From positions 22,514 through 86,513 of the forward strand of contig CAZCAI010000001.1 of assembly GCA_964496595.1 (NCBI GenBank): a stretch of 64,000 bases of DNA, in the 5' to 3' direction. The translations under genes and the position numbers were made by a program. Source of the stretch: an uncultured Anaerolineales bacterium (lineage in GTDB: Bacteria; Chloroflexota; Anaerolineae; B4-G1; SLSP01). Shown here in pieces: positions 22,289 through 51,836 of this stretch (position 1 is the stretch's first letter; each line of letters starts with the position of its first letter). The notes under the pieces are model-generated. The model saw nothing but the letters and a program-made list of their open reading frames with translations, had not been told where the DNA came from and ran no database searches.

Positions 22289-25200
22289 TCATCCCTCTCT
22301 TGTGACGAGCGGCAGGTAGATGATCTCCCCGTCGCTTTCCTCGCTGCTGGCGCCGAATACGGCGAACTCGCTGAGATGGCAGACCGGCGCGACCAGGAGA
22401 TTGCGATCTACATCTGGCGTGTAGCTGGGAACAGGCGGCCCGCAGGCGTTAGCCACATCGTCCCAATCGCTGAGGCTCTCGTTCCAGTAGGTGAGGCGCA
22501 AGGTGGTCTCGTCCTCGATGCCGGCGTTCATCCAATCCTCGTCACGATAGTGAATCGTAACGGTGATCTGTCCGCCGATTTGAGGCGATGCCTCCAGAGC
22601 GAACCCCCGACCAATAAAACCAAGACCGGAGGTGAACGGATGGGTGAGGGTGATATGCGGCGTGTATGTGAAGACCGTCTCCTCGCTCAATGTGCCGCTG
22701 GGGATCTCTATCGTCGTCGTCACCCCGGTCGTGTCGGTGAAGATCGTCGTCCCACCCGACGGGCCGACCGTGAACGCCTCCTGGATAAGAATCGTGTGCG
22801 TGCCGAAGGCGCTCCCGGCGTCATTGCTGGCGGTCACCGTGATGGTCTTGGGGCCGGGGTTGGCCCAGGTGCGATTCTTGAGGACGATGCTCCGTCCCAG
22901 GTTGTAGGGGCCTAGGATCCCCTCGTGGCCTGTGTATTTGACGTAGTAGGTGAGCGGCGTCGTGACATCGAGGGGATCGACCGTGATGGTGAAGGTGTAA
23001 AACTCGTTGGTTCTGCCGATTGTTGGCCCATCAATGTTGACGGCGGTTGGTGCGCCGGGCGCCGGGGCCTCACTGATGGTGATCGTGTGCGTGCCGATGG
23101 CGCTGCCGAGGTCGTTGCTGGCCGTCACTGTGATGGTCTTGGGCCCGGGCGTGGGCCAGGTGCGATTTTTCAGGATGATGCTTCGACCCAGCGTGGCTTC
23201 CAGAGGTGCGCCTTGGAGATCCGTGTAATCGATGACGTAGGTGATCGGTGTCGTGACGTCGATGGGATCGACCGTGATTGTGAATGTGTAAGATTCATTG
23301 GTATAGCCGACGGTGGGGCCACTGATGTTCACGCTGCTGGGCGCCGTCGGGACGGGCGTGCCGCTGCCGGAGAGATTGACCTCGGTGCGGATGCCACGTC
23401 CCTGCCAGGTGGGTGTGCCGCTGTCGGGCGTCAACGCGAGCGGCGTGGTGCTCAGGGGAAGAAAAGCCTTGAAGGTGAGGGCGTCGCCCACATTCGCGCC
23501 TTCGTCGCTCGTAGTCGTCGCGTCGTCGCCGTAGGCGTGCAGGAAGCCGTACTGCCCGGCTTCGGTCAGGATAAAATCGCCGATGTAGACGCTGTCGGGA
23601 TCGTAGACGGCCACAATCGTGCCCACAGGCGCAGGGCTGCCATCGATGGTGATCACGCCCCAAAAGTCAGACCACTCATCGGTCGCGACGTAGGGCATTG
23701 TGACCTCTAGATTGACCTCTTTCTGGTCTACGCCTGAGTTCCACACCGTTGATTTGGACGGCGTAGCCAAGCGCCCATTGATCGTAAAGCGAACTTCATC
23801 CCCATCCGCTATGCCTTCATCCCCCGGCGTGTTGGGATCGTCCACGTAGGTGTGGAGGAAACCGTAATATGGCGGCGTATGCACGGTAAACGCGCCGGCG
23901 ACAATGCCATCTGGATCGTAGGCGACCACGCGGGCGTTGCAAGGTGCAGAAAAGCCACTGAGGGATGCAACGCCGTAGAAGTCAACCCACTCAGTGGTCG
24001 GCGTAAAAAAATATGAGCTTGCTGCTCCTTGTGATATATCAGCGGATGATGGGGGGATGGCCGGTCGTCTGACCGGTGTGTCGGCGCCTGGATAGGTCAG
24101 GATCGGTGCGCTGGCCCCCTCGCTGATCTTGATCCAGTAGGCATACCCCGGCTCCATCATCGTCAGGTCGCTGAATTGCGGCTGGCCGGGCATATAGCTC
24201 TTGGCGCCGCCATCGAAGCTGCGGACGAGGTCGTAATCGCCGCTGATGCTCTCCAACGCCTGGGTGACGACCATCGTGATATCGGGCAGGTAGCTGACCA
24301 GATTCCAGCCCTCGTAGAGTTGGATGGACGTATCATCGCGCGCCGGTTCGTAGGTCAAGGTCAGCGTCTGGGTCGTCGCCGCTGTGATGTGAATCCAGTA
24401 GCCGTGCGCCACATCGATGGTGGTCAGATCGCTGGCGTCGGGATTGCCGGGATCGAAGGTCTTGCCGCCGCCGGATGGCCCGCCATCGAAGGCCAACACC
24501 AGATCGTACTGCCCCGCCAGGCTGCTCAACACCTGGGTGATCGCCGGATCGGGCGGGGTGACGTCAATCGAAAAGAGGTTCCAGCCGGGAGCTAAATCGT
24601 GGATAAACGTAGCGTCGGGCGCGTAGGCCGGGGACATCAACGTGGTCGTGCCGGAGAGATAATCGCCGATAACGTAATCATCCTGCGTGGTGGCCGCGAC
24701 GCGGATGCCGTGATTGGCCGGCAATGGCGCATCTAACGTGGCGGTGAAGCGCGCCGTGCCCGTCACGTTATCGATCACGGCGATGGTCAGCAATTCTAAG
24801 GCGTCCTGTTCATCGTCCAGGTCATCCAGATACAGCTCGACCAGGCAGTTGGGGCAGTCGCTGCCTGCCTCGGTCTCGCCGACGACCTGCGTGCCATCGA
24901 TGCTCACGATGCGCGGCGGATCAAACAATCGCAACGCTTCGGGGATGGCGGGGCCGTATTCGATCACCTTGGTAGTGCTGTCGCGCACGATGTTGTTGCG
25001 CAGCGTGAATTGGCGGGCGAGCGGCGAGCTATCGTTGACGAAGATCGCGCCCTCCGTAGGGTCATCACTCTCAGCGACGAAAAAGCTGGTTTTCGCATTG
25101 ACGATGGTGTTGGTCATCACCTGAATGCCCTGGCCGGTGACGAAGATCCCCTGGCCGCAGGCGCCGACCTCATTGCCCAGCCCATCGATGCCGATGGTGT

Positions 25201-26308
25201 TGTGCTCGAAAAGATTGTCGGCGCCCGCCGTCCATATCGCGGGCGGTGCGGTTTCGGTCGGGGAGTGGGGGCGATGGATGCCCGCGAGGGTGTTGTAGCG
25301 GACGATGTTGTTGCTGCCGCTGGAGAACTCGATCCCCGTCCCGCCGTACCACTGCGCGGGGTTGTAGAGGTTGGAGGCGACGCACGTGAGCCGATCCGCA
25401 GGGACGCTCGTATCGCCCCGCGTGCCGATGTAGTTGTATTGGATGATGTTGTTGTCCCCCTGCACAGAGACCCCGCTGTTGGAGCCGGTGACAATCGTGC
25501 CGCTGATCGTGTTGCCATCGCCCTGGATGGTGATGCCGCCGCCGGCCAGGGTAATATCGGGGTTCGTGCCGGGGACGATCTCCGTGCCGGCGGCGTTCAG
25601 GCCCACCCAAACCTCTTCGACCAGGTTGCTGCCGCCCACGCCGGAGACATCGTTCAAGAAGATACCGCCGCCGCCCTGGAAGGCCAGATTGCGAATGGTG
25701 TTGTGATTGACGCCCACCAGGTCAAAGGAATGCGTGCTGCTGATGACAATTTTGGGATCGCCGGTCGTGCGCCCGCCGGGCTGCGTGTCGCCATCGATGG
25801 TGATGTAACTATCGGGGTTGGCGGGATTGTCAAGATCCCCCACCACGATGGCCTCGCCGCCGGAACTGCTGGAATAGTCGGCGTCCATTACGATGGCCCA
25901 CGTTTGCGTGTCGGCGTGATAGTGTGTATCGGTCAATGGGAGGTTGAATTTGATGAGAATCGGGCGATCCGCCATCGGGCGATGGCTGGCCTCCACTAAG
26001 GCGCGCCGGAGGTTACATTTGCCATCACTGGCTGCGAAAAATGGACTTTGTGTGAAATAGCACGTCCTGGTCTGCGTCTCGCCGCTGGTGTCCTCCGTCG
26101 TGTTGATGGTGATGACGGTGGTGTAGTTCAGCGGCGCGCGGGCGCTGATGGGAGCGGAGAAAGGCTCCATCAGCGGCGTCAGGTCACGCTCTTGCGTCTC
26201 GATTGGATCGAGCCGCATGGCGTCGACGGCATCGTACCTCGTCGCCACGGCGCTCGATAGGAGCAAGAGCAGAGAGATAAGCGTTATCTGCCAGATTCTG
26301 CGTTTCAT
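22289..26308 (-). CDS. Very large secreted multidomain protein with right-handed beta-helix repeats, tandem PKD-like domains and internally duplicated modules. Probably a cell-surface or adhesin-like protein.
   Basis: 1339 aa. Signal peptide (MKRRIWQITLISLLLLLSSAVA). PbH1-like NxxGxxxxG repeats. Two ~95-aa PKD-like repeats (...TFTITVDP.DVTTP.TY...KTITVTASND.GSA.GTHTI). Other duplicated ~70-aa modules. GGAGGGG RBS. Confidence 0.85.
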   Translation of the reverse strand: MKRRIWQITLISLLLLLSSAVATRYDAVDAMRLDPIETQERDLTPLMEPFSAPISARAPLNYTTVITINTTEDTSGETQTRTCYFTQSPFFAASDGKCNLRRALVEASHRPMADRPILIKFNLPLTDTHYHADTQTWAIVMDADYSSSSGGEAIVVGDLDNPANPDSYITIDGDTQPGGRTTGDPKIVISSTHSFDLVGVNHNTIRNLAFQGGGGIFLNDVSGVGGSNLVEEVWVGLNAAGTEIVPGTNPDITLAGGGITIQGDGNTISGTIVTGSNSGVSVQGDNNIIQYNYIGTRGDTSVPADRLTCVASNLYNPAQWYGGTGIEFSSGSNNIVRYNTLAGIHRPHSPTETAPPAIWTAGADNLFEHNTIGIDGLGNEVGACGQGIFVTGQGIQVMTNTIVNAKTSFFVAESDDPTEGAIFVNDSSPLARQFTLRNNIVRDSTTKVIEYGPAIPEALRLFDPPRIVSIDGTQVVGETEAGSDCPNCLVELYLDDLDDEQDALELLTIAVIDNVTGTARFTATLDAPLPANHGIRVAATTQDDYVIGDYLSGTTTLMSPAYAPDATFIHDLAPGWNLFSIDVTPPDPAITQVLSSLAGQYDLVLAFDGGPSGGGKTFDPGNPDASDLTTIDVAHGYWIHITAATTQTLTLTYEPARDDTSIQLYEGWNLVSYLPDITMVVTQALESISGDYDLVRSFDGGAKSYMPGQPQFSDLTMMEPGYAYWIKISEGASAPILTYPGADTPVRRPAIPPSSADISQGAASSYFFTPTTEWVDFYGVASLSGFSAPCNARVVAYDPDGIVAGAFTVHTPPYYGFLHTYVDDPNTPGDEGIADGDEVRFTINGRLATPSKSTVWNSGVDQKEVNLEVTMPYVATDEWSDFWGVITIDGSPAPVGTIVAVYDPDSVYIGDFILTEAGQYGFLHAYGDDATTTSDEGANVGDALTFKAFLPLSTTPLALTPDSGTPTWQGRGIRTEVNLSGSGTPVPTAPSSVNISGPTVGYTNESYTFTITVDPIDVTTPITYVIDYTDLQGAPLEATLGRSIILKNRTWPTPGPKTITVTASNDLGSAIGTHTITISEAPAPGAPTAVNIDGPTIGRTNEFYTFTITVDPLDVTTPLTYYVKYTGHEGILGPYNLGRSIVLKNRTWANPGPKTITVTASNDAGSAFGTHTILIQEAFTVGPSGGTTIFTDTTGVTTTIEIPSGTLSEETVFTYTPHITLTHPFTSGLGFIGRGFALEASPQIGGQITVTIHYRDEDWMNAGIEDETTLRLTYWNESLSDWDDVANACGPPVPSYTPDVDRNLLVAPVCHLSEFAVFGASSEESDGEIIYLPLVTREG

Positions 26309-26320
26309 CGTAAACCCCTC

Positions 26321-26374
26321 CTTGGTTTCCTTGGTTTCCTTGGTTTCCTTGGTTTCCTTGGTTTCCTTGGTTTC
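26321..26374. repeat. Perfect 9-bp tandem repeat x6 (CTTGGTTTC on the + strand; GAAACCAAG on the gene strand) immediately upstream of the RBS of the giant secreted-protein gene.
   Basis: Read directly from the sequence. Ends 4 nt before GGAGGGG and 13 nt before the start codon. Confidence 0.8.
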
Positions 26375-26392
26375 CTGAAAAAACTGTGAGAT

Positions 26393-26629
26393 TCAAGTAC
26401 CCGTTTGAGTTTCATTGGCTTCACCCCCGTGCGACTTTAGTTCATCGTTATCCTCCTCTGTATCGATTTGGATTTGGAGAAACGCGCACAGATCTTTTAG
26501 GCTAGCGAACGCTTGGCGCTCCCCGTTGAACGGATTTTCGATGGAGGCCCGCCAGACTGCATCGCTTTCGTTGCCCGTTCGCCAGATGCGCAGCAGATAG
26601 GATAGATAGTCTCTCCGTTGTCTTGTCAT
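26393..26629 (-). CDS. Small hypothetical protein (78 aa), co-directional with and upstream of the giant secreted-protein gene.
   Basis: ORF with GC3 bias. N-terminal basic segment (YLSYLLRIWRTG...WRASIENPFNGERQAFASLKDLCAFL) and acidic tail. Confidence 0.5.
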   Translation of the reverse strand: MTRQRRDYLSYLLRIWRTGNESDAVWRASIENPFNGERQAFASLKDLCAFLQIQIDTEEDNDELKSHGGEANETQTGT

Positions 26630-26661
26630 ATTCGTTACCCGTCAATTTCATCATAATGATC

Positions 26662-26683
26662 GAACGTCAGGGAAACGTCAGGG
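26662..26683. promoter_or_regulatory. Two direct repeats with 11-bp periodicity (GAACGTCAGGG AAACGTCAGGG). Candidate SARP-binding heptamer repeats that replace the -35 of the minus-strand promoter for the 26629 operon.
   Basis: Read directly from the sequence. On the minus strand the repeats lie ~6 bp upstream of a TATGAT -10-like hexamer. The adjacent divergent gene encodes a SARP-family regulator. Confidence 0.4.
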
Positions 26684-26785
26684 GCACGGCTTTTTTGCTA
26701 CGGAGGGCAACTATCGATATAATGAGGATAGGGTGTTATACCTGAGTCGTCGCCAGAGAAATATTGTCCAAATATAAAGTGAACT

Positions 26786-29700
26786 ATGGCTCAACTTTCG
26801 ATAAGTTCTTTAGGTCCCTTCCGCGCCACGCTGGATGGGGAACCGATCACCAGCTTTGAATCCAACAAAGTGCGGGCGTTGTTGGTCTATCTCGCGATGG
26901 AATCCGACTATCCTCACAGCCGGGAGACGTTGGCGGGATTTTTCTGGCCTGAGCAATCCGAATCTAACGCCCGGCACAACCTGCGCCAGGCGCTCTGCAA
27001 CCTGCGCCAGGTTATTCGTGATCGCGACGCGGACATCCCCTTCCTGCACGTCACGCGCCGGACCGTGCAGTTCGCTCCCGATAGTGACTATTGGCTGGAT
27101 GTGGCTATGTTCAGCGACTATATCGGGGCCAGCGAGGCGCATGCTCATTATCGTCTGGAGACGTGTGGGTCTTGTCGCGAGCAGCTAGAGAAGGCGGCCG
27201 AACTCTATCGGGGCAGCTTTTTGGAGGATCTCTTCGTGGAGGGGAGTATTCCATTCGAGGATTGGGCCTTGCTCCTACGAGAGCGATTTCATCGCCTGGT
27301 GATCGACGCGCTCTATCATCTGGCCCGTCATTACGAGCGCCGCCGAATGTATGACCGGGCGCGACGCTACGCTCGGCGGCAGGTGGAGTTGGAGCCTTGG
27401 CGCGAGGAAGCGCATCAGCAGTTGATGCGTCTGCTGGCTCACAGCGGGGAGCGCAGCGCCGCGCTGACCCAGTACGACCTCTGCCGCCGCATCTTGGCGA
27501 AGGAACTAAACGTCGCGCCGCACCCGGAGACGACGGCGCTCTATGAGCGCATTCGAGCGGCGGGCAGCGCCAGCCCCCACAATTTACCGCCTCAGTTGAC
27601 CCCCTTGATCGGGCGGGAAGAAGAGTTGAGCGAGATTGCGGAGCGGCTGGCCGATCCGGCGTGCCGCCTGTTGACCCTGACCGGGCTGGGCGGTGTCGGA
27701 AAGACGCGATTGGCCCTGCAAGCAGCTCAGGAACACATTGGGGCTTTTTTGCACGGCGTCTACTTTGTCCCGTTGGCGACTTTAAACTCGACCACGCTCA
27801 TTGTCCCTACGATGGTCGATGCGCTTGGATTTTCTCTCTCCGGCGAGCAGCCCCCTGAGACGCAACTCCTGAACTATTTGCGGGAAAAAGAGATGCTCCT
27901 GGTGCTGGATAGCTTTGAGCATCTTCTGGAGGGCGCCGATGTGCTTTTGGACATCCTCAGACACGCCCCCGCCGTCAAGCTGATCGTCACATCTCAGGAG
28001 CGGTTGAATTTTCGGGCGGAGTGGATCTTTCAGGTGGATGGATTGTCTTTGCCAGACAAAGATGTCGTCGCAGGCGCTGAGGCCTCCGGCGCGGTGCGAC
28101 TTTTCTTCGAGCGCGCCCGGCGCGTGGCCCCGGGTTTTTCAATATCGGATGCGACGATGCCGGCGGCGATTCGCATCTGCCAGTTGGTGGGCGGCATCCC
28201 CTTGGGCATCGAACTGGCCGCCGCCTCTCTCCTCACCCGCTCGTGCGAGCAAATTGCCTTGGAGATCGAACGCAACATCGATATATTGACCACGATGATG
28301 CGGGATGCGCCTGAACGCCATCGTAGTATGCGCGCGGTTTTCGAGCATGCCTGGAATTTGCTTGCCCCAGAGGAACAGCAGATCCTGCGGAAATTGACAG
28401 TCTTTCGCGACGGCTTCGAGGCGCAGGCCGCTCGGAGCGTGGCTCACGTATCTCCTTGGCGCCTGACGTCGCTGGTGAGCAAATCTCTCCTGCGGAAGAA
28501 TTCCGTCGGACGGTATGCAATTCACGAGCTTATCAAACACTTTGCCGGAGAGAAATTAGATGAACATCCGCCCGAAAAAGAGATGGCCGGGGAGCGTCAC
28601 GGCGAATACTACACATCATTTCTTCATCAGAGAGAAGGAGCGTTGCAGGCCGGACAACAGCATGAGGCTTTAGACGAGATCAGCACCGAAATTGAGAACG
28701 TCCGGGCTGCCTGGCGATGGGCCGTGGCGCACAAGGAGCTTGGCGCTATCGATGCGGGGTTGGAAAGCCTCTACTACTTCTATTGGGCGCGGAATTGGTT
28801 TCGCGAGGGCCAGGAGATCTTTGGGCAGGCGGAACGCGCCGTTCTGAGTGCGGGAGAAAAAGATGCGCTGCTTCTGGCGAGGATTTGGACGCGCCAGGCG
28901 GAGTTCGATGCCTGGCTCACTCACTACGACGCAGCGGAGAGGCGATTGCGGAAGAGTATCCAGATGTGTCGCTCGCTTCAAGCGCGGCGCGAATTGGCGT
29001 TCGCGCTTGAGATGTGGGGCCGAATCGAATACTGGCAGGGGAAATATACATCATCACGGGATCATGTGCAGGAAAGCCTGGCGCTTTATCGTCAGGTTGA
29101 TGACAAGGTCGGCGTAGCGCAGGCGCTCAACAGTTTAGCCAATGTGCTCTGTGATCTAGATGCCGATTATGATCAAGCCCAAGTGCTCTACGAAGAGAGT
29201 CTGTCAATCGCGCGCGAGATCGGCGATCAGTTTGGCGTGGCCAAGGCGCTCGTCAATCTGGGGGCATTGATGCAGGAGTTGGGGGCTTATGAAGAGGCGA
29301 AACGATTTTATGAGGAGAGTCTGACGCTTTATCGTAAAATCGATTATCGGCATGGAATCTCGGCGTCGCTCAGCTATGTGGGGCAGGCGACCAGTTTGCT
29401 GGGCGAGCATGCGTTAGCTATAGAATTGCTCCAGGAGAGTCTGAACCTCAATCGAGAGACGGGCGACCGCCACGCGATGGCGGAGCGGCTAAAGCAGTTG
29501 GGCAGCGTCGCGTGCCGGATGGGGGTTTATGAGCAAGCGAAGGCGTACTTTGATCAGGCCTTGAGATTGGCAGTCGCGATCCATTCGCATCAGGTCATTT
29601 TAGATGTCTTGATTAGCATGGCTGATCTGTTTCATCAATCCCAGGAATTCCAGGAATCCCAGGACAAAGGGAAAAAGGCGTATGCCGCCTTGGCGTATGC

Positions 29701-29890
29701 CTTGGAGCTTTTGGCCTGTGTCAAGCACCAGGCCACGTGTGGACAAGAGTGTCAGGATCGCGCCGCCGGCTTGCTCCCGGCATTGGTATCCGCGCTTCCC
29801 CCCGCGATGGTGGCCGCGTGCTGGCAGCGGGGACAGGCTAAGACGTTGGACGCGATGGTGACGGAAATCCTGGCGGATCATCTGGTGTGA
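26786..29890 (+). CDS. SARP/AfsR-like STAND regulator: OmpR-type wHTH, BTAD, NB-ARC ATPase and TPR repeats.
   Basis: N-terminal wHTH (LGPFRATLDGEPI...NKVRALLVYLA). BTAD (DYWLDV...LYRGSFLED). Walker A GLGGVGKTRLA. C-terminal TPR-like repeats (ALNSLANV..., AKALVNLGAL...). Confidence 0.85.
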   Translation: MAQLSISSLGPFRATLDGEPITSFESNKVRALLVYLAMESDYPHSRETLAGFFWPEQSESNARHNLRQALCNLRQVIRDRDADIPFLHVTRRTVQFAPDSDYWLDVAMFSDYIGASEAHAHYRLETCGSCREQLEKAAELYRGSFLEDLFVEGSIPFEDWALLLRERFHRLVIDALYHLARHYERRRMYDRARRYARRQVELEPWREEAHQQLMRLLAHSGERSAALTQYDLCRRILAKELNVAPHPETTALYERIRAAGSASPHNLPPQLTPLIGREEELSEIAERLADPACRLLTLTGLGGVGKTRLALQAAQEHIGAFLHGVYFVPLATLNSTTLIVPTMVDALGFSLSGEQPPETQLLNYLREKEMLLVLDSFEHLLEGADVLLDILRHAPAVKLIVTSQERLNFRAEWIFQVDGLSLPDKDVVAGAEASGAVRLFFERARRVAPGFSISDATMPAAIRICQLVGGIPLGIELAAASLLTRSCEQIALEIERNIDILTTMMRDAPERHRSMRAVFEHAWNLLAPEEQQILRKLTVFRDGFEAQAARSVAHVSPWRLTSLVSKSLLRKNSVGRYAIHELIKHFAGEKLDEHPPEKEMAGERHGEYYTSFLHQREGALQAGQQHEALDEISTEIENVRAAWRWAVAHKELGAIDAGLESLYYFYWARNWFREGQEIFGQAERAVLSAGEKDALLLARIWTRQAEFDAWLTHYDAAERRLRKSIQMCRSLQARRELAFALEMWGRIEYWQGKYTSSRDHVQESLALYRQVDDKVGVAQALNSLANVLCDLDADYDQAQVLYEESLSIAREIGDQFGVAKALVNLGALMQELGAYEEAKRFYEESLTLYRKIDYRHGISASLSYVGQATSLLGEHALAIELLQESLNLNRETGDRHAMAERLKQLGSVACRMGVYEQAKAYFDQALRLAVAIHSHQVILDVLISMADLFHQSQEFQESQDKGKKAYAALAYALELLACVKHQATCGQECQDRAAGLLPALVSALPPAMVAACWQRGQAKTLDAMVTEILADHLV

Positions 29891-38217: not shown

Positions 38218-41200
38218 ATGAATATAATAGATACAAATAAAACAACACGCGAAACAATTAGCTTATCCCCGCGCATTTTTTATACGTTTCTCCTATTGAT
38301 TTTCCTGGTCGCGGGCGCCTTTCGCTTCTATCAGCTCGATTGGGATGTTGGCACGCACTTGCATCCCGATGAGCGTTATCTCACGATGGTGGCCGGCGCG
38401 ATTCGCTTCCCGGAGAGCCTCAGTCAGTATTGGGATACCTCAAGTTCGCCGCTGAATCCTGCTAACCACGAATCGTTCGCAGGCTATGTCTACGGCACGC
38501 TGCCGCTCTTCGTGACACGCGCCGTGGGGGAGGCGTTGGATTCAGCCTGCGCCGATCCCGCCGGCTTGGGCGGGCGTCTGGTTCGAGCGTTTTTAGCCTC
38601 GCCGGAGATGTGCTCGCCGGGACGCTTTACGGGCTATAGCGGCATCCACCTGGTGGGGAGGGCGCTTTCCTCTGTAGCCGATTTGATGACGTTGCTCGCC
38701 TTGATCCTCTTGGCGCGTATGCTCTATGGGGATCGCGTGGCCCTGCTATCCGGCGCGCTCTATGCCTGCGCTGTGCTACCGATTCAACACGCGCATTTTT
38801 TCGTCGTCGATAGCTTCGCTGCCGTCTTCGTCATCTGGACGCTCACGTTAGCCATGTACGCTATCCATTCGGATCAGATGTGGTCTCTTATGCTCGCCGG
38901 CGTGACGACAGGATTAGCCGTCGCCTGCAAGATCAGCGTGTGGCCCGTGGCCGGGATGGTGGGCCTGGCCGGGTTGATCTTCCGCCGCCAGGATGAGACG
39001 ACGGGCCGTGCATATTACGCTCTCGATCTCACAGCCCCGCGCGTCGTCGCGCTCGTGCTCTCCGGGATCGGCGCCGCGCTGGCGTTCCGCATCGCGCAAC
39101 CCTATGCCTTCGCCGGGCCAGGCTTCATCAGCCTGCGACTTAATCCCCACTGGTTAGACAATATGCGCTCTATACAGCGCCTGGTCACCGGCCAGGCCGA
39201 TGCGCCGCCCGGCCATCAATGGGCCAATCGCGCCCGGATCATCTTCCCGGCCCGCAATATGATCGTCTGGGGTTTGGGGCTGCCGCTGGGTCTGACGGCC
39301 TGGATCGCCTGGGCCGTGATGGGCTGGCGCACACTGCGCCAGCAACAGTGGCGCCATCTGCTGCCGTGGAGCTGGGGAACGCTCTTCTTCCTCTACCAGG
39401 GCACGCAGTGGGTCAAATCGATGCGCTATCTGCTGCCGATTTATCCCGTCTTCGTGCTTTTCGCCGCGTGGCTGTTGGTTCAGTTGACGCGCAAAACCTG
39501 GACGCGCCCCCGTATCGACAAAATCTGGCGGATCGGGAGCCGCGTGCTCCGCGGCGGCGTGTTGCTCGGCGCCGCGCTGTGGGCGGTGGCATTCTTGCAG
39601 ATCTATGCCCGTCCCGTCACGCGCATCGAGGCCTCGGAGTGGATGTTTGATAATCTTCCCACCGCCATCACCCTGAAAACCATTCAAGGCGTGAAAATCC
39701 AGGTCCCTATTCGAGAGTTGACGCTCAATAAGGCCAGCGCATCGGTCCGACTCTCAATCCCCTGGTCGCATCCCGAGGCGCAACCGGAGCACATCATGTT
39801 GAACAAAGTGAGCGGGGTGGGGGTCGCAGGCGAGCGGGAGATCCGCATTATATTGGCGGAGGATCCGCATCAACAGACGATCCTGGCCGAGGCCATCGCT
39901 ACCGCCGATGTGCCGGCTCTGGGCAACACGTCCGTGACGGCGCTTTTACCCGCATCAATGCGAGAGTGGACGGCGGACGAAGATCTATACCTCTTTATCG
40001 ACTTGCTATCGGGTCCGGCGATTAAACTGGAAACCTCAGTGATCGCCAATGAGCATTGGGATGATCCGCTGCCCTTGCGCATCGATGGCCGCGATCCCTT
40101 TGGCAATTGGTACCAGGGCGTCACAGCGATGCACGGCGGCTTGATGACGCTCTATGATAATGACACCATCGAGAAGCGCGAGCAACTGCTCAACGCGCTC
40201 GACGAGGTGGATTACATCGCGCTCTCCAGCAACCGCCTCTACGGCTCGATCCCGCGCCTTCCGATGCGCTATCCGTTGACCACGGCCTACTACGACGCGC
40301 TCTTCGATGGCAGTTTGGGCTTCAAATTACTGGCGAAGTTCGTCTCCTATCCGGCGCTGGGGCCGTGTCAATTCCCAGATCAAGAATCGCCCTTTGAAAT
40401 CCCCCCGGCGACTTATACGAACGCCCTTCCTTGCTCGGTTCCCTTGCCGCCGGCCGAGGAAGCCTTCAGCGTCTACGATCACCCCCGGGTATTGATCTTT
40501 GCCAAGACACCCGCGTATTCTCGCGCGAATGCGGAGTTCGCGCTCCCCGCCTCGCTGCTGAACGATGTTCAATGGATGACGCCGCGCGATGCCACGCGGG
40601 GAAGCGCTGGCGAAGAGAGCGCGAAGTTGATTATGTCGCCGGAGATGCGAGAGGCGCAGGAATCCGGCGGAACATGGTCGCAGCTCTTTAATCGCGACGC
40701 CTGGCACAATCGATTCCAGCCGTTAGCGGTGCTGCTCTGGTGGATGATGGTGACCCTGCTGGGATGGATGGGGTTTGTGGCGCTTTATCATATCTTCCCC
40801 GCGCTCCGCTATCGCGGCTACGGCTTGGGTAAAGCCGCCGGTCTATTGCTGTGGGCTTACCCGGCGTGGCTGCTGGCCGGCGTGTATCTCGTGCCGCACA
40901 TGCGCGTGCTGCTGTGGGCCGTGTTCTTCGTTGAAATCGGCATCGCGGCAGCGGTGGTGCGAAATAAGTTCCCTGAATTCCGAACGTTTGTTCTAACACA
41001 CTGGCGCGCTCTTCTGCGCATCGAGGGGATCTTCTTAACGCTCTTCTTAGTCTGGGTCGGCATGCGCTATCTCAACCCCGATCTGTGGCATCCCGTGGTC
41101 GGCGGCGAGAAACCGATGGACTTAGCCTATCTCAACGCCGTGATCAAATCCACCTGGTTTCCGCCCTACGATCCGTGGTTCGCCGGCGGGGTGATGAACT

Positions 41201-43314
41201 ACTACTACTTCGGCTTCGTGCTGGTCGGCGCGCTGATCAAGGCGCTGGGCATCGTACCCAGCATCGGCTACAACCTGGCGATCCCGATGCTCTTCGCGAT
41301 GACGGGGGTGGGGGCCTACACTTTGGCCTCCAATCTGGCCGGGGACGGCGAACGCCGCGGCCATCGGGCCGGCCTGCTGGGAGTGTTGCTCGTGCTGCTC
41401 CTGGGCAACTTAGGCGAGATACGGTTGCTCCAGGCCGGATTTGCAAAGATCGGCGATGTACAATTCGATAGTCTAATTCCCGGCTATTCCACCTGGGTCT
41501 CGGCTCTGGTTGGCGTCTGGAAAGTCCTCTTCGAGGGGGAGCGACTGATGTTCCGCACCGAGTGGTGGTACTGGAACGCCACCCGCATCCTGACGGCCAC
41601 AGGCAGCGACATCGGCGCGATCAACGAGTTCCCGATCTTCTCATTCCTCTATGGCGACCTTCACGCGCACGTGATGGCCTATCCGCTGACGCAGTTGGCT
41701 TTAGCTATCGCAATCCAGTGGGCCGTGGGGATTCAACACAGGCTGCGCGTTACGCCTCAGGGCTGGCGCGCCTATCTGAGTGAGCTTCTACCGCGGCCTC
41801 TTGGCTCTTTCTTCTTCGCGGCGTTGATCGCCGGCGCGCTTCGCGCGACCAACACCTGGGATTATCCCACCTACATCGGCGTGATGAGCGTCGCCCTGCT
41901 CTTAAACGTCTTTTTTTCATTAGAGTCCGCCAGATCAGTAAGCAAAGCTGCTGAATCTGCCGATGAAGCAGATCAGACAGAAACCATAGAGGAAACTAAA
42001 TCTGCGCCGCCTATGCCGCCTATGCCGCCTATGCCGCCTATGCCGCCTATGCCCCAGTGGCTTTGCGCTGCGCTCAAATTAGCCACGCCTTTTCTGATCG
42101 TCGCCCTGGCCGAGCTGTTGTTTCGTCCCTTCACCGCGAATTACGCCGTCGCTTATAGCGCCTTCGAGCGCTGGGAAGGGGGGCGCACGCCCGTGGGGAA
42201 ATACCTGATTATGCACGGGCACTTCCTCTTCCCCATCACGTTGTTGGCGCTGGCGGAAGGGTGGGGCGCTATTCGGGGCTGGTTCGGGGAAGGGATTGAT
42301 CTCGCGGAAGAGAGCTTCTTGGAGAGATCTAACACCGTTGCCTGGTGGTCGGTCGTCATCGTAGCGGCACTGCTATTGATGAGCATTTTGCTGATCTTAG
42401 AAGTGCAGGTTGCGTGGATCGCCGTGCCGCTGGGCGTCATCGCCGGAATATTGGTCATCGCGCCGGATACGGCCCCGCGCGCTCGATTACTGTGGTTTAT
42501 GACCGGCTCCGCGATGGCGCTCAGCTTGATGGTGGAGCTGTTAGTACTGCGCGGCGACATCGGGCGGATGAATACGGTCTTCAAGTTCTATCTTCAGGTG
42601 TGGATGTTGCTGGCGCTCAGCGCTGCCGTCGCTGTCGAGCGATTGCTGCATCTGGTGATGTCGGCGCCTGAAGCGATGACCGGGGAGAACCCACTGAAGC
42701 GCCTCTATCGCGATACGTGGGTGGGGGACGCCATCATCGTCGGCCTAACGCTGCTCCTCTTCGCGACGGCGCTTTATACAGCCCTGGCGCTGCCGGCGCG
42801 CGTGCGCGATCGCTGGCGTCCAGAAGCGCCGCACACGTTGGATGGAGCGGCTTATATGTCCTACGCGGTACAATATGAACAAGGCAGTGAGATTCCATTG
42901 CGTGTGGACGCGGGCGTGATCCGCTGGCTTCAGGAGAACGTGAGCGGCTCCCCCACGATCATCGAGGGGCAGGCAGAGCGCGAGTATCTCTGGGGCAATC
43001 GGGTCAGCGTTTATACCGGCTTACCGGCGGTGACAGCGTGGCGCTGGCACCAGGTTCAGCAGCGGATGGCGATGCCGGGCGGCGTCGTGGAGCAGCGGCA
43101 GATGGACATCCGCAGCTTCTACAACACGCCCGATCCGAAGGTCGCGCGACAGATTCTGGAGCGCTACGAGGTCGAGTACGTCATTATGACGCCCTATGAA
43201 CGAGCCTATATGCTGCCGGAGGGTGAGACCAAATTCGCGCCGATGGTCAAGCGGGGCTGGCTGGAGATCGTCTACAAAACCGCTGAGGCTACGATTTATC
43301 GCGTGGGGCCGTGA
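38218..43314 (+). CDS. Very large polytopic membrane protein, GT-C-fold glycosyltransferase-like (DUF2298/ArnT/PMT-like N-terminal domain), with an internal (PMP)n repeat.
   Basis: 1698 aa with >20 predicted TM helices. N-terminal loop motif HPDERYLT after TM1 is typical of GT-C enzymes. The family assignment is inference. Confidence 0.7.
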   Translation: MNIIDTNKTTRETISLSPRIFYTFLLLIFLVAGAFRFYQLDWDVGTHLHPDERYLTMVAGAIRFPESLSQYWDTSSSPLNPANHESFAGYVYGTLPLFVTRAVGEALDSACADPAGLGGRLVRAFLASPEMCSPGRFTGYSGIHLVGRALSSVADLMTLLALILLARMLYGDRVALLSGALYACAVLPIQHAHFFVVDSFAAVFVIWTLTLAMYAIHSDQMWSLMLAGVTTGLAVACKISVWPVAGMVGLAGLIFRRQDETTGRAYYALDLTAPRVVALVLSGIGAALAFRIAQPYAFAGPGFISLRLNPHWLDNMRSIQRLVTGQADAPPGHQWANRARIIFPARNMIVWGLGLPLGLTAWIAWAVMGWRTLRQQQWRHLLPWSWGTLFFLYQGTQWVKSMRYLLPIYPVFVLFAAWLLVQLTRKTWTRPRIDKIWRIGSRVLRGGVLLGAALWAVAFLQIYARPVTRIEASEWMFDNLPTAITLKTIQGVKIQVPIRELTLNKASASVRLSIPWSHPEAQPEHIMLNKVSGVGVAGEREIRIILAEDPHQQTILAEAIATADVPALGNTSVTALLPASMREWTADEDLYLFIDLLSGPAIKLETSVIANEHWDDPLPLRIDGRDPFGNWYQGVTAMHGGLMTLYDNDTIEKREQLLNALDEVDYIALSSNRLYGSIPRLPMRYPLTTAYYDALFDGSLGFKLLAKFVSYPALGPCQFPDQESPFEIPPATYTNALPCSVPLPPAEEAFSVYDHPRVLIFAKTPAYSRANAEFALPASLLNDVQWMTPRDATRGSAGEESAKLIMSPEMREAQESGGTWSQLFNRDAWHNRFQPLAVLLWWMMVTLLGWMGFVALYHIFPALRYRGYGLGKAAGLLLWAYPAWLLAGVYLVPHMRVLLWAVFFVEIGIAAAVVRNKFPEFRTFVLTHWRALLRIEGIFLTLFLVWVGMRYLNPDLWHPVVGGEKPMDLAYLNAVIKSTWFPPYDPWFAGGVMNYYYFGFVLVGALIKALGIVPSIGYNLAIPMLFAMTGVGAYTLASNLAGDGERRGHRAGLLGVLLVLLLGNLGEIRLLQAGFAKIGDVQFDSLIPGYSTWVSALVGVWKVLFEGERLMFRTEWWYWNATRILTATGSDIGAINEFPIFSFLYGDLHAHVMAYPLTQLALAIAIQWAVGIQHRLRVTPQGWRAYLSELLPRPLGSFFFAALIAGALRATNTWDYPTYIGVMSVALLLNVFFSLESARSVSKAAESADEADQTETIEETKSAPPMPPMPPMPPMPPMPQWLCAALKLATPFLIVALAELLFRPFTANYAVAYSAFERWEGGRTPVGKYLIMHGHFLFPITLLALAEGWGAIRGWFGEGIDLAEESFLERSNTVAWWSVVIVAALLLMSILLILEVQVAWIAVPLGVIAGILVIAPDTAPRARLLWFMTGSAMALSLMVELLVLRGDIGRMNTVFKFYLQVWMLLALSAAVAVERLLHLVMSAPEAMTGENPLKRLYRDTWVGDAIIVGLTLLLFATALYTALALPARVRDRWRPEAPHTLDGAAYMSYAVQYEQGSEIPLRVDAGVIRWLQENVSGSPTIIEGQAEREYLWGNRVSVYTGLPAVTAWRWHQVQQRMAMPGGVVEQRQMDIRSFYNTPDPKVARQILERYEVEYVIMTPYERAYMLPEGETKFAPMVKRGWLEIVYKTAEATIYRVGP
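42007..42051 (+). repeat. In-frame 9-bp tandem repeat x5 (CCGCCTATG) encoding PPMPPMPPMPPMPPM within the 38218 gene.
   Basis: Read directly from the sequence. Confidence 0.8.
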
Positions 43315-51015: not shown

Positions 51016-51708
51016 CTACTCGTCTTGCTCAAACCGCAATCCATGTCCCCGCACAGTCACAACATATTCATGGTCTGGATTTAACTCTGCCAACCGTTCC
51101 CGGAGACGATAAACTAACGCATCGACAGCTTGATCCGTCACACCACCAACCGCATCGGGCCAGACCACTTGGATAATCTCCTGCCGCGTGACAACGCGCT
51201 CGTCTGAAGAAACCAACAAGTCCAGAAGAGCAAATTGAGCCGGGGAAAGCGGTGGATCCAACTCCTCGCGCCCCAGGCAAACACGGCGCGTTGTGAGATG
51301 CACCTGCAATTTAGATGAGGCCTCTGATGCGCCTGACAAGGCATCCGAAGCATCTAAGGAGATAGACTCTTCCGATTCCAACGGCAACGTCGCATCTCCG
51401 GCGACAAATCCCATTTGTACCGTCATCGCCAAATTGATCTCATCGCCATCGCGGAGACGGTAAGGTTGTTTTCGCACCGGCTTATCATTCACGAAGGTGC
51501 CATTTTTGCTCCCCAGGTCTCGCAAGAGATAGCCGCGCTCGTCGTGCTCGATGCGCGCGTGATAGCGCGAAATTTGTCGCTCTAACATCACAAGGTCGCA
51601 ATCCGAGCCACGACCAATCGTCGTAGTATCATTCTCCAGCGGCCATCGCGTACCCGCCAACGCACCTTTATAGATGATCAAAAATGGACGATTTTCTTCT
51701 GATTCCAT
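51016..51708 (-). CDS. FHA-domain transcriptional regulator with a C-terminal OmpR-type winged helix.
   Basis: N-terminal FHA (TTIGRGSDCDLVM...ISRYHARI...GSKNGTFVN). C-terminal trans_reg_C (LSPAQFALLDLL...VTVRGHGLRF). Confidence 0.8.
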   Translation of the reverse strand: MESEENRPFLIIYKGALAGTRWPLENDTTTIGRGSDCDLVMLERQISRYHARIEHDERGYLLRDLGSKNGTFVNDKPVRKQPYRLRDGDEINLAMTVQMGFVAGDATLPLESEESISLDASDALSGASEASSKLQVHLTTRRVCLGREELDPPLSPAQFALLDLLVSSDERVVTRQEIIQVVWPDAVGGVTDQAVDALVYRLRERLAELNPDHEYVVTVRGHGLRFEQDE

Positions 51709-51836
51709 TACGTCTCCTCATTACTCCTACTTTACTCCTACTTTAGATCGGAAAATAGCCCCATTGTTCGGGCCGACGTCCTCGCCGTGCCCGTGGTAGC
51801 TTGGCGGGGACGCCAGCCACAACCCACGATGAAACC

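Follow-up and report, generated by a model that had tools for sequence, protein, structure and literature searches.

What does a perfect array of short tandem repeats do when it abuts the ribosome-binding site of a gene coding for a very large secreted protein in an environmental bacterium? Repeat-driven variation in the expression of surface proteins is, to our knowledge, well documented almost only in host-adapted pathogens, and we know of no contingency-type locus described in Chloroflexota. Such an array occurs in the genome of an uncultured Anaerolineales bacterium, within a window of 64,000 nucleotides, i.e. the whole stretch of DNA analysed here. An earlier note on this DNA proposed that the array is a substrate for slipped-strand changes in copy number, which would switch the downstream gene on and off or alter its level in the manner of phase variation, or alternatively that it forms an A-rich translational enhancer.

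Different scenarios might explain the presence of the array and its behaviour. In this study we describe its structure and genomic context, compare its alleles among near-identical contigs and more distant orthologous loci, and weigh a graded effect on translation against a neutral by-product of slippage, an on/off switch, the binding of an RNA or DNA regulator, and an artefact of assembly.

Structure and position of the array

On the minus strand of the window, positions 26321-26374 consist of six full and perfect GAAACCAAG units of 9 bp each. TRF reported a period of 9 at 26319-26376 with 6.4 copies and 100% matches, and the score of this 9-bp array (116) was the highest among the 50 TRF tandem repeats of the window. 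Read on the minus strand, the tract and its continuation into the gene are TTTTTTCAG(GAAACCAAG)6GAGGGGTTTACGATG, and the entire interval from the stop codon of a small upstream ORF to the start codon of the large gene is TGA ATCTCACAGTTTTTTCAG (GAAACCAAG)6 GAGGGGTTTACG ATG, with 12 nt separating the array from the ATG of a gene for a 1339-aa protein (Table 1). TRF and the sequence itself therefore agree with the description given in the earlier note, a perfect six-copy 9-bp array placed against the ribosome-binding site of this gene. Its location in the 5' leader holds in that the array lies upstream of the ribosome-binding site, and is more precisely stated as an 84-nt spacer leading from a 78-aa ORF to the large gene.

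Table 1. Features of the locus, with their positions in the window
Feature	Position	Strand	Remarks
1339-aa secreted-protein gene	22289-26308	minus	ATG at 26308
Shine-Dalgarno AAGGAGG	26317-26323	minus	followed by 8 nt GGTTTACG, then ATG
Periodic tract	26319-26376	minus	length 9n+4 nt
Non-repeated part of the spacer, ATCTCACAGTTTTTTCAG	26375-26392	minus	from the small-ORF stop codon to the array; identical in all alleles
78-aa ORF	26393-26629	minus	directly upstream of the large gene, same strand
Putative SARP-type promoter	26650-26680	minus	upstream of the small ORF
AfsR/SARP-like regulator	26786-29890	plus	divergent; 1034 aa; wHTH-BTAD-NB-ARC-TPR

The array belongs to no dispersed family in the window. 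A two-unit 18-mer probe allowing up to 2 mismatches gave five overlapping matches in the 64-kb window, all of them at the array, where shuffled sequences lead one to expect 0.01, and the GAAACCAAG unit pair was present at no second locus of the window. The further statement that no other perfect six-copy noncoding repeat exists in the window was also borne out, as the sole comparable array (42006-42053) is coding. This second array, on the plus strand, is a perfect 9-bp GCCGCCTAT repeat of 5.3 copies, which encodes (PPM)5 within the ORF 38218-43314; the latter specifies a 1698-aa DUF2298 membrane protein, and its array is the only other perfect one with at least five copies in the window. At least 119 genome matches to the two-unit 18-mer corresponded to unrelated coding low-complexity runs, in the frames ETK, KPR and NQG, and among the matches listed none had more than four copies and none adjoined a Shine-Dalgarno (SD) sequence. 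A scan of a metagenome collection with the invariant 23-mer of the right flank returned 0 matches, so the clade is absent from that collection.

The secreted protein and its probable operon

The N-terminus of the 1339-aa protein, MKRRIWQITLISLLLLLSSAVA, is signal-peptide-like as judged by eye, and internal duplications are visible in the translation. Pfam returned PKD only, at 25 bits against a cut-off of 23.5. The beta-helix has no direct match in this protein and is probable from its homologues only, which carry PF13229 or are named 'right-handed parallel beta-helix repeat-containing protein'. The protein class proposed in the earlier note, a secreted beta-helix/PKD protein with internal duplications, is thus recovered in its N-terminus, its PKD domain and its duplications, and reached through homologues alone for the beta-helix; the N-terminus, PKD and the annotation of the homologues mark a surface or secreted product. 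All homologues of the large protein come from MAGs of Chloroflexota, belonging to Anaerolineae, Thermoflexales and Caldilineae.

The start codon is supported by the MK(R/H/S)(R/K) N-terminus, which is conserved in four orthologous loci (L005-L008), and by a leader devoid of ATG, GTG or TTG. The same two observations led us to reject a longer N-terminus encoded across the repeat. In comparison with its closest relative, P0001, the protein is identical over residues 1-158 and 95% identical overall, the substitutions being scattered past residue 158 and accompanied by a 3-aa indel. Neither the 1339-aa protein nor P0046, a member of its cluster, was on record in exact look-ups, and a protein search with the N-terminal 158 aa, aimed at truncated genes at contig ends, gave no match.

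The 78-aa ORF is conserved in three related loci (L129, L006 and L008), with 24 invariant columns, the motif Y-SYLLR-W...WRA-E-P...R-F-L-DL-AFL and an acidic tail. It matched no Pfam or NCBIfam family, and a protein search with it recovered its own 90% cluster only. Because of its conservation in related loci we regard it as a real gene, and it is probably the first gene of an operon. It always lies between a SARP-like regulator and the large secreted protein. The small and large ORFs share one frame, with no stop codon between TGA and ATG, both in the window (26306-26629) and in L008 (3093-3404); we take this frame sharing as a coincidence, since it is absent in L006.

The small ORF is preceded by two TGACGTT heptamers (26680-26674 and 26669-26663, i.e. 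an 11-nt period), with TATGAT (26655-26650) 7 nt beyond the second. No other site of this kind occurs in the window, and the heptamer architecture is kept in L129 and L006 (3630-3667 in L006), with TATAAT as the -10 element there. SARP-family activators bind direct repeats with an 11-nt period that abut the -10 element. Since the TGACGTT repeats have this period and this position, the small ORF and the large gene are probably co-transcribed from a SARP-dependent promoter. The protein encoded divergently next to it has Pfam matches to BTAD, NB-ARC and TPR and gives a full-length alignment with NCBIfam AfsR that scores below the cut-off of that model, and is the probable activator of the operon. 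The trio of regulator, small ORF and large protein recurs in L006 and L008, where the large protein is 66-70% identical, and the conserved element beside a divergent regulator suggests a SARP-activated operon in Chloroflexota.

The proximity of this regulator raises the question of whether the array itself could be a DNA-level operator, its direct repeats being bound by the adjacent SARP regulator or by another transcription factor. Although SARP regulators do bind tandem direct repeats, and one is encoded divergently next door, the candidate SARP boxes are found elsewhere, as TGACGTT with an 11-nt period abutting a -10 element, unlike GAAACCAAG with its 9-nt period; furthermore, the 12 nt to the start codon leave no room for a promoter, and the array is missing at orthologous loci that retain the regulator. 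An operator function is therefore scarcely credible, and a SARP operator at the array was discarded outright, as its motif, period and position all differ from those of the TGACGTT boxes.

Copy number among near-identical contigs

Exact look-ups of the small ORF and of its two 95%-identical variants led to six further contigs (Table 2). The comparison of copy number among assemblies that the earlier note had suggested yielded 2, 3 and 6 copies at the same locus between near-identical flanks, the latter being 95-99% identical (1-5% divergence) across the contigs with n = 2, 3 and 6. All contigs that extend far enough agree fully in the SD, in the non-repeated spacer and in at least the 40 nt following the array, and the identity downstream of the array extends over 130 nt in the four contigs that continue that far.

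Table 2. Alleles of the array in near-identical contigs, and the corresponding site in orthologous loci
Contig	Source	Copies	Extended SD	Remarks
Window	NCBI contig	6
L001	ERZ10759773	2
L002	ERZ10759774	2
L003	Logan ERR6290773	2		k=31 assembly
L130	ERZ10759834	2		haplotype ~5% from the other n=2 contigs
L129	Logan SRR25621640	3		~4% from the window and from L001-L003
L004	ERZ10759785			coverage 1.9; departs after the T-run next to the array and stops 15 nt on
L005			AAAAAAAGGAGATTAGAGATG
L006			CTGAAAGGATATAAAAATG
L007			CTAGAAAGGAGCATAACGATG
L008			CCAGAAAAGGAGTGTAACGATG

Relative to L001-L003, the window carries 2-4 substitutions in 344 nt upstream and 9 in 520 nt downstream, so that the gap of four units between them falls within ~1.3% local divergence. 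Relative to L129, it carries 15 and 22 substitutions over the same respective lengths, and L130 differs from both the window and L001-L003 by 16-18 upstream substitutions. Two copies are thus found on two haplotypes ~5% apart, and n=2 is therefore probably the ancestral state; from this distribution we read n=3 and n=6 as separate expansions. As haplotypes ~5% apart have n=2 in common, the short alleles are not obviously hypermutable. Turnover of copy number may be slow, given that n=2 occurs on these diverged haplotypes and in all resolved contigs of one ENA series. The ERZ107597xx and ERZ107598xx contigs probably share a single study with ERR6290773, and the series consequently represents about three independent sources. 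Each assembly contained a single allele, and nothing in the assemblies pointed to a mixture of alleles in any one sample. In the low-coverage contig L004, positions 630-656 agree with the other alleles up to the T-run before the array, and continue with T8 and AAAAATCTTAAAG to the contig end, which could reflect an artefact of the low coverage or a junction unlike the others.

Could the copies themselves, or the differences between contigs, be an artefact of the way de Bruijn assemblers handle tandem repeats? For the common k values of 21, 31 and 55, the shortest path through a collapsed repeat would measure 22, 31 and 58 nt, exactly the tract lengths observed for n=2, 3 and 6, respectively. 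However, a 22-nt tract cannot result from a collapse at k=31, the value used for Logan assemblies: being shorter than k, the tract of L003 implies that 31-mers running from flank to flank occur in the reads, and its two copies are therefore real. Collapsed cycles normally break a contig, whereas L129 and the window contig pass through the array unbroken. Formally, n=3 (a 31-nt tract, equal to the Logan k) and n=6 (a 58-nt tract, the minimum path at k=55) are to be read as minimum values. Since assemblers collapse repeats and never expand them, the contrast between two and at least six copies is a biological difference, and we attach next to no weight to an assembly artefact.

Orthologous loci without the repeat

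At orthologous loci with 66-77% protein identity there is no repeat, and a plain AAAGGAG SD stands at the same position (Table 2). As these distant orthologues are without it, the array is young and lineage-specific, and judging from the allelic series it is unstable in length; being missing from all the more distant orthologues, it is not a conserved regulatory element. The distance from the stop codon of the small ORF to the start codon of the large gene is 48, 57 and 84 nt for n=2, 3 and 6, respectively, and 75 and 83 nt in the repeat-free L008 and L006.

Predicted properties of the leader RNA

The last repeat unit supplies the first three bases of the SD (AAG), with which it ends, and GAGG completes AAGGAGG. 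AAGGA recurs at every unit junction, such that six weak SD-like motifs at an exact 9-nt spacing precede one strong SD. With a generic 16S 3' tail, assumed for a window without rRNA, the predicted pairing amounts to -13.4 kcal/mol for the true SD versus -5.2 kcal/mol for a unit junction. The array is devoid of U, is 56% A, and in all frames is free of start and stop codons.

The minimum free energy of the leader is -14.9 kcal/mol (z = +0.92), and 163 of 200 shuffled sequences fold at least as well. Hairpin arms of the type known from the hmw leaders of Haemophilus influenzae were not found, the only contacts within the array being 2-bp GG:CC pairs. The stretch directly 5' of the SD is predicted to be single-stranded, as in a standby site, with a mean unpaired probability of ~0.55 over the repeat. 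Modelled for n=1 to 10, the predicted unpaired probability of the SD stays between 0.62 and 0.75, and the accessibility of SD and AUG is nearly constant. On the gene strand, no -35/-10 promoter-like pair was found in 26100-27000, so that none brackets the array, and the interval from the small ORF to the large gene contains no promoter-like or terminator-like site. A promoter, terminator or attenuator inside the spacer was excluded by this site scan together with the unstructured leader.

These properties bear directly on the proposed on/off switch. In a classical phase-variation system, units would be gained and lost frequently and reversibly, turning a surface protein on and off, and both the difference in copy number between close relatives and the large secreted or surface-type product encoded downstream would suit such a system. 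However, the unit is noncoding, without start or stop codons, and lies upstream of a constant SD and ATG, which makes a frameshift impossible; promoter spacing is unaffected where no -35/-10 pair brackets the array; the predicted structure is neither gained nor lost with copy number; and the assemblies show no mixed alleles within a sample. Given a constant SD, a constant SD-ATG distance and a flat predicted accessibility, switching through frameshift, promoter spacing or RNA structure is ruled out, and the on/off part of the earlier proposal is very unlikely.

A further possibility concerns the recognition of the array by an RNA regulator with affinity for GGA or A-rich sequences (CsrA/RsmA-like or S1), copy number setting the occlusion or recruitment of ribosomes at the overlapping SD. 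Multiple GGA sites that overlap the SD are a hallmark of CsrA targets, where they typically lie in hairpin loops. The region from -90 to -1 holds seven GGA motifs in the array leader, an outlier against a median of 2 among 39 ORFs of the window, and their exact 9-nt spacing, the location of the last one inside the SD and the predicted single-stranded context are all compatible with this possibility. Nevertheless, none of the seven lies in a predicted hairpin loop, Rfam gave no match with E <= 1 at 26150-26850 on either strand, the unit occurs nowhere else in the 64-kb window, leaving no sign of a regulon, and orthologues exist without the array. Taken with these objections, an RNA-binding array is quite improbable.

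Origin of the array and its possible effect on translation

The single-copy sequence AGGAAACCAAGGAG contains AGGA twice, 9 nt apart, and slipped mispairing between the two could have duplicated the 9-nt unit, which in so doing would have taken in the 5' half of the SD. Once two units were present, further slippage would be easier, and copy numbers of 2, 3 and 6 are what is seen among close strains. With each added unit, the true SD (AAGGAGG) would remain unaltered and 8 nt away from the ATG, 9 nt of U-free, A-rich, unstructured RNA with one weak SD-like AAGGA would be gained, and the stop codon of the small ORF would come to lie 9 nt farther from the start of the large gene. The resulting longer single-stranded standby or landing platform for the 30S subunit could bring about a graded, heritable change in translation initiation; SD-like tethering of post-termination ribosomes would be an alternative graded route. 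The action would be rheostat-like, with no on/off state, and, as the transcript probably begins ahead of the small ORF, the repeat would act post-transcriptionally.

An A-rich translational enhancer, the second proposal of the earlier note, fits an array with this base composition, a predicted unstructured context and AAGGA at its junctions, and among functional consequences a graded effect on 30S recruitment seems the most plausible. Against it stands the thermodynamic accessibility model, which predicts no effect of copy number from n=1 to 10. For the combined statement, i.e. a variable repeat with a graded effect on translation, we estimate a probability of roughly 0.45.

Nearly as likely is a neutral origin, in which the array is a by-product of slippage tolerated in a permissive spacer and its copy number merely marks the divergence of strains. 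In favour of such a neutral by-product, the array is missing from all orthologues outside the immediate clade, and the predicted accessibility of the ribosome-binding site is flat with copy number. The stability of n=2 across diverged haplotypes also agrees with it, as do the 75-83 nt spacers of the repeat-free relatives, which indicate that lengths of 48-84 nt are evidently compatible with function, and the coding 9-bp array and an 11-nt duplication of an SD elsewhere in the window, which suggest a slippage-prone genome. On the other hand, the array lies exactly at the ribosome-binding site with units that copy a portion of the SD, and its length has changed independently at least twice within no more than 5% local divergence. 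The effects of upstream single-stranded standby regions on translation have been studied experimentally, and this work makes a null effect less than certain.

A more specific version of the graded effect, a heritable rheostat of stacked half-SD units in which 9-nt AAGGA modules gained or lost by slippage recruit or hold the 30S subunit beside the true ribosome-binding site and tune a SARP-controlled secreted protein between strains, is rather doubtful.

The 11-nt duplication lies at 51709-51745 on the minus strand, where a perfect, SD-like AGTAGGAGTAA is repeated 2.3 times and followed by the SD GAGGAG, 5 nt and an ATG at 51708. The gene starting there codes for a 230-aa regulator with FHA and OmpR-type wHTH domains, and is thereby preceded by three SD-like motifs at 11-nt spacing. 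A scan for AAGGA arrays with a 9-nt period that end in AAGGAGG retrieved almost exclusively coding KE-rich repeats, together with two cases at gene junctions. The latter are AAGGAG-bearing 9-nt arrays from metagenomes, with the unit AAGGAGGCA in L181 (minus strand, ~2772) and CCAAAGGAG in L231 (plus strand, ~5273); each encodes the C-terminus of one gene product as a (KEA)n or (KEP)n tail, and its end merges into the SD, AAGGAGG, of the next gene, which lies 9-10 nt farther on. Tandem duplication of SD units at gene junctions therefore occurs elsewhere, and the three sites hint that translation may repeatedly be adjusted by the duplication of SD modules.

Comparison with known systems

The locus is of a known type, a leader repeat beside a surface-protein gene, and with a perfect repeat in the leader and polymorphic copies between conserved flanks it agrees with contingency loci in structure and polymorphism. 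Standby sites and A-rich or CA-rich enhancers, which have been defined functionally in Escherichia coli and in synthetic systems, resemble it in that the A-rich, U-free leader directly 5' of the SD is predicted to be unstructured and contains weak SD-like motifs. We know of no standby site or enhancer described as a perfect tandem array with variable copy number.

Among repeats in the leaders of surface-protein genes, the (ATCTTTC)n repeat in the 5'-UTR of hmw1A and hmw2A of H. influenzae is described as lowering expression in a graded manner as copies rise, and as forming a long hairpin with a G-rich arm that is cleaved by RNase III (PMC12721329; PMC2424069). The array studied here is likewise a tandem repeat in the transcribed leader of a very large secreted or surface-protein gene, with copies that vary by strain; unlike the hmw repeats, with their 7-nt unit, at least 11 natural copies and hairpin, it has a 9-nt unit, 2-6 copies and no predicted structure, and it directly abuts and partly reproduces the SD. 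The leader of uspA2 of Moraxella catarrhalis is reported to have 6-23 copies of (AGAT)n depending on the strain, with an optimum of expression (PMC4679880, citing Attia and Hansen 2006). In both loci the gene is one for a surface protein, the repeat is placed downstream of the transcription start and upstream of the start codon, and its copies depend on the strain; they differ in that uspA2 has a 4-nt unit, belongs to a host-adapted pathogen and has an expression effect established by experiment, whereas the present array belongs to environmental Chloroflexota and its effect is putative.

A closer parallel in habitat is offered by the TAACTGA arrays of marine Beggiatoaceae, cyanobacteria and Bacteroidetes, which have 2-6 copies and end a few nucleotides from start codons, differ between sister strains by unit-sized indels, and have been proposed to act post-transcriptionally through S1, Csp or Csr; each genome contains this one heptamer at over 100 dispersed loci, mostly in place of the SD (PMC4679880). 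The two have in common an environmental host, 2-6 tandem units near a start codon and unit-sized differences between strains. Unlike TAACTGA, the GAAACCAAG unit is found at one locus in 64 kb and stands upstream of a strong canonical SD. In the TAAA tract of Neisseria nadA, the length of an intergenic repeat alters the expression of an adhesin (PMC2791445). Unlike repeats of this kind, which act on promoter geometry or regulator sites, the array adjoins the start codon and no promoter elements flank it; the conserved promoter candidate lies upstream of the small ORF. What distinguishes the locus is a 9-nt unit copying half of the SD, an intercistronic site in a SARP-type operon, and a host from Chloroflexota.

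Conclusions

If verified, a repeat of variable copy number at the ribosome-binding site of a secreted-protein gene in an uncultured Chloroflexota would extend repeat-driven variation to free-living environmental bacteria, and to a purely translational geometry in which the repeated units copy part of the Shine-Dalgarno sequence. Should copy number tune translation, metagenomes could be screened systematically for arrays of this kind, which would mark differences in expression between strains; should it not, the locus would provide a clean natural example of slippage repeats at a purine-rich ribosome-binding site.
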